A stretch of DNA of 64,000 nt, taken from the NCBI GenBank assembly GCA_963755045.1, contig CAVWIL010000001.1:55484-119483 (forward strand). The letters run 5' to 3'. The stretch comes from Nitrospirota bacterium (lineage in GTDB: Bacteria; Nitrospirota; UBA9217). Shown in pieces: positions 4,566 to 63,097 of the stretch (the first letter of the stretch is position 1; the number at the start of each line of letters is the position of its first letter). The notes below the pieces were generated by a model. That model made no database searches. It was given only the letters and a program-made list of their open reading frames with translations, and had not been told where the DNA came from. The position numbers and the translations under genes are program-made.

Positions 4566-4662
4566 CTCGCAGAGCACGCGGAGAGCGCAGAGTTAAATCA
4601 AAACCCTTAAGCCTTTGTTATTAATATTAAGCCTTTCTCTGCGAACTCTGCGCCTCTGCGAG
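4566..4662. repeat. Intergenic inverted tandem-repeat hairpin with unit ~CTCTGCG.
   Basis: The left arm is ctcgcagagcacgcggagagcgcagag (4566-4592) and the right arm is tctctgcgaactctgcgcctctgcgag (4636-4662). They are separated by an AT-rich spacer. Confidence 0.75.
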
Positions 4663-4679
4663 AAAACTTTTTTTGAGTG

Positions 4680-5964
4680 CTATTTTTTTATACTGAAAAA
4701 CACGTCCCTGCCCCGGTACACTGCCGCGTCTCCCAGTTCCTCTTCGATCCGTATGAGCTGGTTATACTTGGCGATGCGGTCCGTGCGCGAGAGGGACCCG
4801 GTCTTGATCTGTCCCGCGTTCGTCGCGACGGCGAGGTCCGCGATGGTCGAGTCCTCAGTTTCGCCGGACCGGTGCGATACCACCGAGGTATAGTGCGCCC
4901 GTTTCGCCATCTCAATTGCATCCAGGGTCTCGGTGAGCGTGCCGATCTGGTTCAGCTTTATCAGGATCGAGTTGCCGATCCCTTCTGCGATGCCTTTTTT
5001 GAAGATCGACGTATTGGTCACGAAGATATCGTCGCCGACGAGCTGAACGTTCTTACCCAGGCGGTCGGTCAGGAGCTTCCAGCCCTTCCAGTCCTTTTCC
5101 GACATACCGTCCTCGATACTGACAATGGGATATTTCTTGACCCACGCTTCGTAGAACGAGACCATCTCTTCGGATGATATCTTTTTCCCCTCGCCCTTCA
5201 GATCATAGATCCCATTTTCGTAAAACTCGCTTGCCGCTGCGTCGAGTCCCGAGAAACACTTCTTGACCCGGCTTGTAACCGGCCTTCTCGATGGCCTCAA
5301 GGATCACCTGCACCGCCTCTTCATTCGATTTGAGGTTCGGGGCAAATCCGCCCTCATCGCCAACCGCGGTGTTGTATCCCTTTTTCTTGAGGACCGATTT
5401 GAGATTGTGGAACACCTCCGCGCCGATGCGTATCGCCTCGGTGCAGGATGGAGCGCCGGCCGGAATGATCATGAACTCCTGGATATCGACATTATTGTCC
5501 GCATGCGCGCCGCCGTTCAGCACATTCATCATGGGGACCGGCAGTTCCCGGGCATTCGGGCCGCCGAGGTAATGGTACAACGGCAGGCCTGCATCCTCGG
5601 CAGCGGCCTTGGCCACGGCGAGCGAAACGGCAAGCATGGCATTCGCGCCGAGCTTGCCCTTGTTCTCGGTGCCGTCGATGTCGATCATGGTCCGGTCGAT
5701 CACTGCCTGCTCGATGGCATCCATGCCCATGATAGCGGGACCGATCACCTCGATCACGTTGTTCACCGCGTTCTGGACACCCTTCCCCTGATAGCGCGTA
5801 CCGCCGTCCCTGAGCTCAAGGGCCTCGCGCTCGCCTGTTGACGCGCCGCTCGGAACGATGGCGCGGCCCATCGCCCCGCTTTCGAGAATGACATCGGCCT
5901 CCACCGTTGGATTACCGCGCGAATCCAGCACCTCGCGCGCATACACATCGATGATCTCGCTCAT
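4680..5964 (-). CDS. eno: Enolase with one frameshift near 5247.
   Basis: The N-terminal part is ORF 5203-5964 ('[11 protein letters not shown]..') and the C-terminal part is ORF 4680-5300 ('[18 protein letters not shown]'). Removing one base in ctcgggActcgac restores '[13 protein letters not shown]'. Confidence 0.9.
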
Positions 5965-6009
5965 AAGCCCTCCCTGCTAAAAGATATCATAAAATATAAA
6001 TATTAATCC

Positions 6010-6084
6010 GTCATTCCGGGCTTGACCCGGAATCCAAATAATTTTGAAAAACCTGGATTCCCGATAAAGGTATTCGGGAATGAC
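6010..6084. repeat. Pair of REP-like palindromic units (GGATTCCCGA..TCGGGAATGAC family).
   Basis: gtcattccgggcttgacccggaatcc (6010-6035) lies in inverted orientation to ctggattcccgataaaggtattcgggaatgac (6053-6084). The second unit is 28/32 identical to the copy at 25998-26029. Confidence 0.8.
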
Positions 6085-6113
6085 GAAAAAGTGTCGCTGG
6101 CGTTAATACCTCT

Positions 6114-7544
6114 TCACTGCCCTGATATGAACTTTTTCCCGGCTTCTATCAATTCTTTTATCTGTTCCTCTGAAGAGGACTCGACATACACCCGCACCAC
6201 CGGCTCCGTGCCTGACGCGCGCATCAAAACCCAGCTGTCATCCTCAAGCATGTACTTGGTCCCGTCCGCGGTGGTCTTCTTGCCTTTGACCCTGAGTCCG
6301 CCGAACTCGTTCAGGGGCTGACTGAGTCGCGCATACACTGCCGCGTGATTCGCTTCCGTAAGGCGTATATTGACCCGGTCGTTTAAAATGACGCCTACTT
6401 CTTTATAGAGCCTCTTCAGCATGTCTTTGAGCGTTTTTCGTTCGCTTGAAACCATTTCCGCGACCAGAAGGCAGGCAAGGATGCCATCCTTCTCCGGAAC
6501 GTGGTCCTTGATCGTCATCCCCGCGCTTTCCTCGCCGCCGAAGATGATCTTACCCTGCACCAGCAGGTCTCCGATGAACTTGAATCCTACTCCGGTTTCG
6601 TACACCTCAATGCCGTGTTTCTTGGCTACCGCGTCGATGAGATGGGTGGTGGCAATGGAGCGCGCAGCGCCGCCTTTCCAGCCCCGTGTGCGGCAAAGGT
6701 AATCCAGGACCAGGGCGAGGACCTGATTCGGATTAATGTATGTCCCGTCCGGGTCAATGATCCCGAAACGGTCAGCGTCGCCGTCGACTGCAAGGCCGAG
6801 GTCAAAGCGCCCCTTTTTCATCACCTCTGAAAGTTCCGCGAGGTTTTCCTCGGACGGTTCGGGAGAACGGCCGCCAAACAGGGGGTCGCGATGTCCATGC
6901 ACGATCGTAATCGCACAACCGGCGTCCCTGAGAGCGCTGTCCAGATAGTCCCTGCCCGTTCCATAAAGCAGGTCGATGGCGATCTTTAATTTTGCTTTCT
7001 TAATTGGTTCAAAATCGATCTTTTTTCTCAGGTCATCAAGATAGGCCTTGCGGAGATCAACGTCGTCCACCATCCCCTTTTGTTTTGCCTCAGCCAGCGA
7101 CAGGAGCGGGATGGAATTTTTATCAATAAGAGCGTTGGCACGCACTTCGATATCTTTCGTGGTTTCAGGCAGTGCCGGGCCGCCCCAGGCAGCGGAGAAT
7201 TTCAGGCCGTTGTATTCCGGAGGATTGTGACTTGCGGTGAAGTTGATGCCGCCCGCGGCCTTTCTGCGAATGATTTCGAAGGCGACGGCAGGAGTGGGAA
7301 CATCCCTGTTCGAGAGAAATGAGCGTATCCCGTTCGCCGCAAAAACCCTGACGGACTCTGCGGCAAACCGCTCGGACAAAAAGCGCGTATCATATCCAAT
7401 GACAACACCCTTGTCTTTCAACCCTTGTGCAACAAGGTGATCGGCGATCGCCTGGGTCACCGCCCGTACTCTGCTGAACGTAAAATCAGCCGCGATCACG
7501 CCGCGCCAACCCGAGGTACCGAACTTTATTTTTTCAATCGCCAT
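6114..7544 (-). CDS. Phosphoglucomutase/phosphomannomutase family protein.
   Basis: Intact ORF with 'GTSGWRG' and the active-site loop 'TASHNPPEYNGLK'. I prefer the ATG at 7544 over the TTG at 7553. Confidence 0.85.
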   Translation of the reverse strand: MAIEKIKFGTSGWRGVIAADFTFSRVRAVTQAIADHLVAQGLKDKGVVIGYDTRFLSERFAAESVRVFAANGIRSFLSNRDVPTPAVAFEIIRRKAAGGINFTASHNPPEYNGLKFSAAWGGPALPETTKDIEVRANALIDKNSIPLLSLAEAKQKGMVDDVDLRKAYLDDLRKKIDFEPIKKAKLKIAIDLLYGTGRDYLDSALRDAGCAITIVHGHRDPLFGGRSPEPSEENLAELSEVMKKGRFDLGLAVDGDADRFGIIDPDGTYINPNQVLALVLDYLCRTRGWKGGAARSIATTHLIDAVAKKHGIEVYETGVGFKFIGDLLVQGKIIFGGEESAGMTIKDHVPEKDGILACLLVAEMVSSERKTLKDMLKRLYKEVGVILNDRVNIRLTEANHAAVYARLSQPLNEFGGLRVKGKKTTADGTKYMLEDDSWVLMRASGTEPVVRVYVESSSEEQIKELIEAGKKFISGQ

Positions 7545-62313: not shown

Positions 62314-62327
62314 AAAGTCATAGCGTC

Positions 62328-62443
62328 TATCGCAGAGACGCTGAGGACGCGGAGAAATGCATCTTTTGAAATAATAATTGATTTTCTCTGTGCTCTCTGC
62401 CTGCACACATGCGCTTACGAGTATTAACGTGAGTGCAAGTGTG
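62328..62443. repeat. Two adjacent intergenic imperfect hairpins with unit ~CTCTGCG, as at 4566-4662.
   Basis: tatcgcagagacgctgaggacgcggagaaatgc opposes attttctctgtgctctctgcctgc. After that, cacacatgcgcttacg opposes cgtgagtgcaagtgtg. Confidence 0.7.
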
Positions 62444-62472
62444 CCTCCGCGGTAAAAACATCGGAGATTTTT

Positions 62473-62949
62473 TTGGACGAACAAATGATGGACCTGTTCT
62501 CGATTATCGCGGACCAGGTACGGAATAAGCAGGAGTTGTTCGACAACGAAGGCAAGATCATGCAGGCCCTGCTGAACAGCGGCTTCCGGCTCACTGAGGC
62601 GGACGCCGCGCTCACCCTGATGCAGACCCTCGTACAGAACCAATCAGAGAGCTTGATCACGCGGGAGCCGAAGGCATCTTCCGTCCGGATGAGGGCGATG
62701 AACCGGGAAGAGCGGGAGCGGTTCACCGTTGACGCTTTTGGTTTTGTCTCAAAGCTCACCCACCTCGGCATCATCTCCGAGGACCAGCGGGAAGAACTGC
62801 TGGAAAAGGCCATGACGGCATACACCGAACGGATAGAGCTTGACCATATCAAGAACCTTATTGCTTTTATCTTCTTCGTGTCCCCCCATGAACGGGAGCA
62901 CAGCTCGTCCGCGAATCTCCGGCGGATAAAAGATACGGCGTGGAACTAG
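62473..62949 (+). CDS. smg: Smg (DUF494) protein.
   Basis: Intact 158 aa ORF that sits in the classical dprA-smg-topA position. It carries 'LLNSGFRLTEADAAL' and 'RMRAMNREERERFTVDAFGFV'. Confidence 0.75.
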   Translation: MDEQMMDLFSIIADQVRNKQELFDNEGKIMQALLNSGFRLTEADAALTLMQTLVQNQSESLITREPKASSVRMRAMNREERERFTVDAFGFVSKLTHLGIISEDQREELLEKAMTAYTERIELDHIKNLIAFIFFVSPHEREHSSSANLRRIKDTAWN

Positions 62950-62969
62950 GAAGTGTATAATAAAAATAT

Positions 62970-63097
62970 TTTGCCACGGATTAACACGGATTTTCACGGA
63001 TTGATAAATCCTAAGAATTAATTATTAATCCTTTTCCGTGTTCTTCAGCCTATGCCCGCGTTTTGGCAACAGCAGGGTATGTGCATCCGTGGTAAAT
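62970..63097. repeat. Intergenic inverted tandem-repeat element with unit CACGGATT (3 tandem copies, period 10).
   Basis: The left arm is ttgccacggattaacacggattttcacggattgataaatcc. The right arm is aatccttttccgtgttc...gcatccgtggtaa and is interrupted by about 35 nt. Confidence 0.7.

Follow-up and report, generated by a model that had tools for sequence, protein, structure and literature searches.

About 20 hairpins or half-hairpins built of arrays of short tandem repeats, the two-armed ones with the purine-rich array on the 5' side, are found at a density of roughly one per 3 kb in a 64,000-nucleotide (64 kb) stretch of contig CAVWIL010000001.1 from an uncultured soil Nitrospirota bacterium (GenBank assembly GCA_963755045.1, positions 55,484 to 119,483; hereafter the window, numbered from its first letter). 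The best explanation for these loci is that they belong to a class of palindromic elements spread across phyla. On balance, we favour the reading that the loci of the window are gene-less or half-sized derivatives of mobile cassettes of the intervening sequence (IVS) type, known from 23S rRNA genes, that have been remodelled by slippage. The elements share an architecture and a polarity, are biased towards non-coding DNA, carry arms that occur with and without a cargo gene, have inserted at unrelated sites, are found across phyla and drift in their repeat units. They look like a widespread type of stem-flanked selfish element that until now has been reported piecemeal.

Inventory and architecture of the elements

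A first-pass annotation of the window had described at least 20 intergenic loci of one architecture, with tandem units in the left arm and their reverse complements in the right. The repeats that it listed are present at every locus named, and the existence of a largely intergenic family with a common architecture and divergent sequence is borne out. The two-armed architecture holds for 14 short hairpins, with which a gene-enclosing pair of arrays (34861/35275) and the unpaired arrays at 26044, 33485 and 53747 had been mixed. Together with three newly found unpaired arrays (13175, 17043 and 17671), the inventory comprises 14 short hairpins, one gene-enclosing version of 491 nt and 6 unpaired arrays. 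The window was compared with about 22 related Nitrospirota loci (L001-L021 and L049), which span 10 kb to either side of ftsY. The FtsY protein of the window (50154-51071, minus strand) shares 93% identity with proteins from soil metagenome-assembled genomes (MAGs) labelled Nitrospirota; no protein identical to it or to the IscU of the window was found. The elements are listed below, with a strand for the unpaired arrays and the cassette; z is the fold z-score of each two-armed locus (n=14) against 200 dinucleotide shuffles.

4563-4665: CGCAGAG(G) hairpin, arms 4566-4594 and 4637-4662 with an AT-rich loop; z -4.13; both flanks T-rich; between two minus-strand features, an enolase fragment and a zincin-like gene
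13175-13203, minus strand: unpaired TGCGGAA/TGTGGAA array, purine form on the sense strand, just 5' of a Shine-Dalgarno sequence and the start at 13153
15044-15137: CACGAAT hairpin 3' of a RuBisCO-like gene; z -6.00; flanks A-rich 5' and T-rich 3'; found by inverted-repeat search
17043-17076, plus strand: unpaired GACGCATAGCGCGTAGCGCAGAGGGCATGG array adjoining a strong promoter-like site
17671-17697, minus strand: unpaired TTCGGAT/TGTGGAT array directly 3' of the stop codon of the 17702-18766 gene (minus strand)
19775-19873: CGCGAAG hairpin with termini TTTACCGC...GCGGTAAA; z -7.32; second-ranked outlier in the sliding-window fold
26044-26073, minus strand: unpaired GTGCGGA array immediately 3' of the ileS stop codon
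28948-29023: GTGCGGA/TCCGCAC hairpin, 0 nt from the upstream stop codon; z -4.17
33483-33517, minus strand: unpaired AGTTCGG array 3' of the stop codon of a hemerythrin gene; same unit family as the cassette arms
34855-35345, minus strand: IVS-like cassette, closing stem formed by 35275-35340 (purine-rich on the minus strand) and 34861-34909 (pyrimidine-rich)
34928-35203, minus strand: cargo open reading frame (ORF) of the cassette, 91 aa, PF05635 by profile matches
39696-39826: AAGCACC/AAATNNC near-perfect palindrome; z -5.87; shares sequence with the 3' end of the xseB ORF; the ispA start follows about 10 nt further on
45069-45186: degenerate AAGCACC element between ymdB and xseA; z -0.24; orthologue in L002
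45999-46064: GCGCATAG-family hairpin in the rny-ymdB spacer; z -3.75
50068-50156: GCATAGA hairpin between ftsY and zapA; z -2.47; unequal arm copies; 5.9 copies with 94% identity by Tandem Repeats Finder (TRF)
51074-51181: AATTGGA hairpin ending 4-5 nt before the ftsY Shine-Dalgarno sequence; z -7.95; 40-nt arms 85% complementary
53745-53782, minus strand: unpaired TGCGGAT array 3' of the iscU stop codon
56081-56190: degenerate CACGGAT element 3' of a gene, with the iscR promoter downstream; z -0.04; orthologues in L001 and L002
58345-58446: CAGGAGN/ACTCCTG element in the 68-nt spacer of two divergent ORFs; z -1.21; L002 orthologue 89% identical
59043-59143: CACGAAT hairpin between convergent genes; z -2.60; L001 orthologue 86% identical
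62328-62404: CGCAGAG/GCGGAGA hairpin 3' of dprA; z -2.74
62970-63096: CACGGAT hairpin with termini TTTGCCAC...GTGGTAAA; z -5.51; T-rich on both flanks

The repeat unit, initially put at 8-12 nt, is in fact 7 nt long, or 8-9 nt in the CGCAGAGG family. When arrays were called from 21 comparisons with at least 15 matches, the window contained 14 arrays of period 7, against 1.0 in block shuffles. Periods 5, 8, 10, 11 and 13 gave just 0-1 arrays, and the signal at periods 6, 9 and 12 reflects codons; TRF assigned most loci a period of 7 or 14. The 64 kb contain no fewer than 10 unrelated unit sequences. Same-family elements of the window have little in common beyond their units, and blastn-short searches found no full-length paralogues in the window or the related loci, where only orthologues were recovered. 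The arrays are not equally dense in coding sequence: in the related Nitrospirota loci their density fell from 0.91 per kb outside ORFs to 0.028 per kb within them, a difference of about 30-fold. In loci from other phyla it was 0.094 per kb outside ORFs.

Polarity and termini

All two-armed loci of the window have a 5' arm made of a purine- or A-rich unit (CGCAGAG, CACGAAT, CGCGAAG, GTGCGGA, AAGCACC, GCATAGA, AATTGGA, CACGGAT or CAGGAGN) and a 3' arm made of its complement. Because a palindrome is the same on both strands, this polarity belongs to the element itself and does not depend on which strand is read. The purine arm came first in 11 of 11 complementary pairs from the related loci, an automated count gave 32 arrays against 1, and CAGGAGT arrays in viral contigs followed the rule 5 to 0. 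In unpaired arrays the purine form was found on the sense strand in 5 of 5 cases inspected by eye, and in 13 against 9 by an automated count that misclassifies the TGCGGAT family. Unit families of the form C-R-C-R-R-A-K, moreover, have common termini, TTYACC(G/A)C...G(C/T)GGTRAA.

Heptamer arrays were also observed near ftsY in some MAGs of subsurface Bacillota (L028, L030 and L031). One of these loci (L031, 12812-13033) contains six copies of TAGTTGC and five of AACTAGC about 100 nt apart, in pyrimidine-first order.

Cassettes that enclose a gene

The cargo ORF at 34928-35203 matches the four-helix-bundle, or 23S rRNA intervening sequence, protein family (PF05635, E 7.9e-17; TIGR02436, E 2.2e-16), and is shorter (91 aa) than its counterparts in relatives (118-130 aa). 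On the forward strand, an AGTTCGG array (34861-34909) and a CCGAACT array (35275-35340) flank this minus-strand ORF. The whole 491-nt segment folds with a minimum free energy of -143.6 kcal/mol (z -4.16), the arrays being paired as a closing stem. A cassette of the same layout, (AGTTCGG)n-Shine-Dalgarno-ORF-(CCGAACT)n, is present at the orthologous site in relatives, and cassettes with AGTTCGG/CCGAACT arms were found at four unrelated sites in other genomes.

At one of these sites the cassette splits a gene: on metagenome contigs from three samples (L253-L255, 560-1025) it cleanly interrupts a hybrid histidine kinase, leaving positions 2-33 of the HATPase_c profile on one side and 35-110 on the other. 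An empty version of this site was sought and none was obtained. The uninterrupted homologue, P0121 (89% identical; L265, ENA ERZ1286166 contig_2700, gene 301-1494), holds at the same position a gene-less, in-frame hairpin of GACGAGG units (z -3.59), whose translation adds a loop of about 28 residues to the protein. Thus, elements can sit inside coding sequence, and one site can hold different members of the family. Rickettsia palindromic elements likewise insert in frame in genes, and the hairpin of the L265 kinase resembles them in this respect.

PF05635 genes on plasmids of Nostoc, Calothrix, Anabaena, Picosynechococcus, Pseudanabaena and Azospirillum were flanked by arrays of other unit families in 6 of 6 cases, inverted and purine-first in five and direct in Pseudanabaena. 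The unit flanking the Nostoc punctiforme gene is CAGGAGT. In several of these plasmid genes, the AGGAG or GGAG of the last repeat stands 4-9 nt 5' of the ATG. This suggests why the purine arm comes first: purine repeats may provide the ORF in the loop with its Shine-Dalgarno sequence, and hence its ribosome-binding site, in either orientation.

Three of the cyanobacterial plasmid loci (L260, L262 and L264) have array-flanked four-helix-bundle genes inside CRISPR-cas operons, at cas6/cas4 and cas10/cmr3 junctions. PF05635 has previously been noticed inside cas loci (PMC3936711), and such genes may be insertions rather than cas accessory genes. PF05635 is also homologous to Avd, an accessory protein of diversity-generating retroelements (PMC10053308).

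A second cargo was found in the CGCAGAGG family. At least 120 metagenome stretches contain its 21-nt arm TTYACCGCAGAGGRCGCAGAG; among the matches listed, GC content of the loci ranges from 36% to 73% and the partner array lies downstream in 38 and upstream in 3. Two Gemmatirosa megaplasmids of 74% GC also carry the family, at 24 and 17 places. This spread across GC contents and the Gemmatirosa copies indicate that independent origin by slippage cannot explain the distribution. In three loci (L173, L182 and L187) the arms are 420-440 nt apart and enclose a GxxExxY / PDDEXK_3 gene (PF13366, E about 1e-42 to 1e-45), and each of the 5 GxxExxY genes of the fetched loci has such arms next to it; in L130, L171 and L192 the same arms occur without cargo. 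As in MITEs (miniature inverted-repeat transposable elements), terminal inverted repeats are therefore shared with a gene-carrying element, for both the CGCAGAGG and the AGTTCGG arms.

Among the closest known counterparts of the cassette is the IVS in helix 45 of the Coxiella burnetii 23S rRNA gene, a selfish element of 428 nt with a 28-bp terminal stem and an S23p (PF05635) ORF, which has tandem GACAGAT heptamers in strain-variable number ahead of the ORF and is cut by RNase III within the stem, the 5' cut falling at the first repeat (PMC4990558). Such IVSs are considered selfish or horizontally acquired (PMC4990558). The elements of the window are like 23S rRNA IVSs (Coxiella, and also Leptospira and Salmonella) in having terminal inverted repeats that form a long stem, and like that of Coxiella in the purine-rich tandem heptamers of variable copy number in the 5' arm and, at 34855-35345, in the PF05635 ORF of the loop. 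The other 14 hairpins have no ORF; ORF-less IVSs of about 100 nt exist in Salmonella. By contrast to rRNA IVSs, which are inserted in helix 9, 25 or 45 of 23S rRNA, the elements of the window lie between protein-coding genes (in relatives also within them) and no rRNA gene is present in the window; they also occur at about 20 per 64 kb, most without an ORF and with many unit families together.

Folding and sense-strand pairing

The capacity of the arms to fold better than shuffled sequences was upheld for most loci and failed for some. Eight of the 14 hairpins gave strong signals (z -3.75 to -7.95) and three modest ones (50064, -2.5; 59040, -2.6; 62324, -2.7), whereas three were no better than the 200 shuffles (45065, -0.24; 56076, -0.04; 58341, -1.2). 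A long stem between complementary termini was thus found with z <= -2.5 in 11 of 14 short elements, in addition to the cassette. In a sliding-window fold of both strands of the whole window, the eight strong loci ranked top among the outliers. An ungapped stem finder detected no elements in the window, because the arms differ by indels. Local alignment of the window to its own reverse complement ranked 39696-39826 first (score 36), with shuffles scoring too high and most elements missed.

The first-pass annotation had raised selection on structure as one possibility, and the pairing data do not bear it out for the sense transcript. In hairpins between co-directional genes, transition-type stem mismatches on the sense strand comprised 57 G.U and 55 A.C; selection on a sense-strand RNA fold should favour G.U, so this equality lends it no support, and the copy numbers of arm units drift in near-identical relatives. 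The equality fits young, neutral or symmetric elements.

At the site upstream of ftsY, a covariation analysis was frustrated by unit indels, which break the alignment of the large hairpin, and only a small neighbouring hairpin emerged. This is an 8-bp hairpin (CGACATACTGCGTATGTCG) at about 51181-51199 (minus strand), right after the stop codon of an HD/OB-fold gene and separate from the adjoining repeat-armed hairpin; it is conserved across 7 relatives, and 6 of its 8 pairs show compensatory changes.

Turnover in orthologous spacers

Comparison of orthologous spacers, which the first-pass annotation had proposed, uncovered presence/absence differences and replacement of one family by another in the ftsY-zapA and ymdB-xseA spacers, even in the closest relatives. 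At the ymdB-xseA site of L001, L003 and L014, a short GGGTCAN array stands in place of the AAGCACC element, and elements are nested or duplicated at some sites of L016, L018 and L019. The rny-ymdB spacer has kept a repeat-armed hairpin in almost all of about 20 relatives with differing units: CGCATAG in the window, CAGGAGT/CAGAAGT in L001, L002, L003, L014 and L019, TGCGGAW in L006, L010 and L012, an AAGCACC-like unit in L008 and L021, CAGGATG in L016 and CACGAAG in L017. These hairpins of relatives had z <= -2.9 in 11 of 16 cases. Upstream of ftsY, the 3' arm differs by 14 and 21 nt, multiples of 7, among near-identical relatives, and L007 has only a minimal version of 10 bp; slippage in place therefore also operates.

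These differences in arm length and the seed-like hairpin of L007 would suit home-grown palindromes, in which 7-nt-biased slippage expands seed hairpins and the host selects for an intercistronic RNA stem, with no mobility involved. So would the persistence of the rny-ymdB hairpin through complete sequence turnover, the T-rich tails of about half of the elements, and the excess of heptanucleotides in bacteria that has been ascribed to polymerase slippage (Mrazek 2007, as cited in PMC4679880). Such an origin is nevertheless unlikely, given that one 21-nt arm recurs with its termini over a wide range of genomic GC among the matches listed, that identical arms flank cargo at unrelated sites and within the histidine kinase gene, that different families occupy one spacer in close relatives, that elements are nested, and that G.U does not exceed A.C on the sense strand.

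Tails and termination

It had been stated that the elements lack a trailing U tract. This is correct for about half of them; those at 4566, 15045, 56080, 59043 and 62970 are followed on both strands by 6-9 T in the 14 nt after the stem, against 3.3 expected, and the elements at 4566, 15045 and 62970 have A-rich 5' and T-rich 3' flanks on both strands. Furthermore, elements are found mostly 3' of stop codons, the one at 59043 between convergent genes, and canonical terminators appear to be rare in the window. A scan for intrinsic terminators (1-20000 and 44001-64000; loops of 3-8 nt only) reported none of the elements, because their loops are mostly longer (3-45 nt in the 14 short hairpins). 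One clear textbook case was observed at 12303-12332 (minus strand), where a GC-rich stem of 13 bp closes a 4-nt loop and a T-rich tail follows, showing that ordinary terminators coexist with the repeat-armed hairpins.

Host terminators or mRNA stabilisers of an unusual long-stem type, with the repeats as incidental features, could account for these tails and positions, a role that would fit at most about half of the elements. Many others, such as those at 46005, 50068, 51075 and 28952, stand between close operon genes, 4-20 nt ahead of the next Shine-Dalgarno sequence and without T tails. The gene-enclosing version, the versions inside coding sequence and the three unstable copies of the window are likewise at odds with such a function, which as an explanation of the elements has slightly poorer prospects than growth in place.

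Relation to other repeats

Searches of the window against Rfam at the gathering threshold returned a 6S RNA and a tRNA only, and a permissive search with perfect elements produced matches solely to eukaryotic miRNA precursors, all below threshold and reflecting generic hairpins. The first-pass annotation had recognised no named repeat family, and no Rfam family indeed matches; similar pairs had, however, been described in Geobacter (2009) and Xanthomonas (2015), and heptamer stems in the Coxiella IVS (2016).

In Geobacter metallireducens, classes 1-3 of 'global regulator binding sites' are opposite-strand pairs 75-115 nt apart, each of 3-5 tandem repeats of 7-9 nt, for which binding of IHF/HU was guessed; insertion sequence (IS) elements insert beside class-1 sites (Aklujkar et al. 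2009, PMC2700814). The elements of the window answer to this description of paired sites, with two opposite-strand arrays at variable spacing. Moreover, the class 3 units ATTCTGA/CTCCTGA are the complement of CAGAAGT/CAGGAGT, the unit family of 58345-58446, with identical polarity. The G. metallireducens classes differ in that each was described as uniform in that genome, and they were not linked to cargo genes or IVSs. That a nucleoid or regulatory protein binds the DNA of the arrays in the window, as the authors of PMC2700814 put forward for G. metallireducens and as the likeness of inverted pairs of short units to operator arrays might suggest, is highly improbable: at least 10 unrelated unit sequences would have to serve within 64 kb, units turn over at fixed positions, copy number varies, and the arrays are usually 3' of genes rather than at promoters and are tied to cargo ORFs.

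In Xanthomonas, GGGAATC heptamers form 70-75 convergent inverted pairs able to form stem-loops (Rehm et al. 2015, PMC4692102), a pair type conserved between species (PMC4692102). Cyanobacterial and Beggiatoa arrays are mostly direct repeats only (PMC4679880). The elements of the window resemble the Xanthomonas GGGAATC repeats and the cyanobacterial short tandemly repeated repetitive (STRR)/TAACTGA sequences in being intergenic tandem heptamers, STRR being likened by arrangement only, and cyanobacterial plasmids offer a further likeness in their PF05635 genes with heptamer-array flanks. The Xanthomonas and cyanobacterial studies, by contrast, dealt with one unit sequence each, and their topics were G-quadruplexes or translational control.

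Repetitive extragenic palindromes (REPs), with their BIME and REPIN assemblies, and MITEs are also comparable, as abundant extragenic palindromes that are often 3' of genes, nested or clustered and targeted by IS elements, and as non-autonomous relatives of a gene-carrying element. However, the elements of the window have no family consensus such as the GTAG of REPs, and just short termini recur (e.g. TTYACC...GGTRAA); their arms are internally tandem-repetitive, and no REP-associated tyrosine transposase (RAYT), other transposase or target duplication was seen. The REP-like GGATTCCCGA motif that the first-pass annotation had placed beside the elements is not enriched, having 11 matches in the window against 8.4 expected. 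A short hairpin, GGATTCCCGA...TCGGGAATG, was observed at 25995-26025, between the ileS-proximal array and the lspA start.

Proposed origin of the elements

If the elements derive from mobile IVS-type cassettes, the full-length form would have its arrays as a long closing stem around one small gene, encoding either a four-helix-bundle protein (PF05635, with an Avd-like fold) or a GxxExxY, PD-(D/E)XK-like protein (PF13366); one such cassette is present in the window. The short form would be a gene-less hairpin of 60-140 nt or a half-element, i.e. a single array. Cassettes and derivatives would spread by insertion, after which replication slippage would remodel them in place. Within operon transcripts the stems would fold and RNase III would probably cut them, as in 23S rRNA IVSs. 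That the hairpins of the window are probably RNase III substrates when transcribed gains indirect support from the Coxiella IVS, which has the same design of a heptamer stem around a PF05635 ORF. Insertions would be tolerated between genes and may secondarily serve in processing, stabilisation or termination. The other possibility raised by the first-pass annotation, that one mechanism acted repeatedly, fits the evidence for insertion of cassettes and derivatives.

Several observations weigh against this origin. The tlyA-DUF3786 cassette is orthologous across the clade, so it has not been recently mobile there. No target-site duplication was recognisable at the histidine kinase insertion, no transposase was found among the scanned ORFs of the window and no RAYT was seen (64 kb of the genome being covered), and near-identical paralogous copies were not found; nor do the cargo proteins belong to known transposases. 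Neither was a cargo-bearing version found for the CACGAAT, TGCGGAW, AAGCACC, AATTGGA, GCATAGA and CACGGAT families. The purine-first order is broken in L016 (10919-10990), in a nested element of L148, in L239 (2081-2150) and by the direct arrays of Pseudanabaena, and the changes in copy number and the 10-bp version of L007 fit growth in place too. Lastly, the RNase III step is carried over solely from rRNA IVSs, and the balance of G.U and A.C lends no support to selection on an RNA fold.

A wider reading, which we regard as tentative and less well founded than the derivation from IVS-type cassettes, would unite the hairpins, the PF05635/GxxExxY cassettes, 23S IVSs and the heptamer repeats (STRR, Geobacter, Xanthomonas) in one previously unrecognised, cross-phylum mobile class. 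Such an element would invade operon spacers and CRISPR-cas loci as well as rRNA genes, and would even enter coding sequences; it would owe its toleration to a stem built of repeats, which folds away or which RNase III removes, and would be spread by its Avd-like or PD-(D/E)XK cargo, possibly via an RNA intermediate. If true, this would also account for the excess of 7-nt repeats in bacterial genomes. We found no paper that joins these systems, describes hairpins of Nitrospirota or matches the literal repeat strings. Should the link hold, the richness in 7-nt repeats, the roles of PF05635 and GxxExxY proteins, the origin of IVSs and the paired sites of Geobacter and Xanthomonas would become one testable system. 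At about one per 3 kb, the elements would shape operon transcripts in an abundant soil lineage, and gene callers are led astray by the open reading frames that they create and the genes that they split.

Assembly quality and other features of the window

A run of 212 consecutive G was observed at 33239-33450, within a histidine kinase ORF (32341-33477, plus strand) and in its 3' part, and is most likely a sequencing or assembly artefact. Several genes are split into multiple ORFs or truncated (enolase, 4680-5964; ileS, 26073-28860; dxs, 36755-38344; rny, 46070-47146; DUF3786, 34077-34863), which, together with the shortened PF05635 ORF, points to frameshift-type assembly errors or pseudogenes. 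The G run and the many split genes indicate that the assembly is imperfect. Despite these defects, chance, compositional bias or assembly artefact can be dismissed as the source of the elements with near certainty, since shuffle controls exclude chance and the elements are also present in independent MAGs, differently assembled metagenomes and finished genomes.

Housekeeping genes on the minus strand dominate the window (ftsY, zapA, mgsA, xseA/B, dxs, ispA, rny, ymdB, ileS and iscSU). The 6S RNA (Rfam RF00013, 104.5 bits) lies at 49415-49595 (minus strand), directly 3' of zapA. Upstream of the Rrf2/IscR gene, a palindrome (ACTTGACAAAATTAGTCAAGT, 55956-55976) overlaps a TTGACA box and is kept in all relatives; this site is probably an autoregulated isc promoter.

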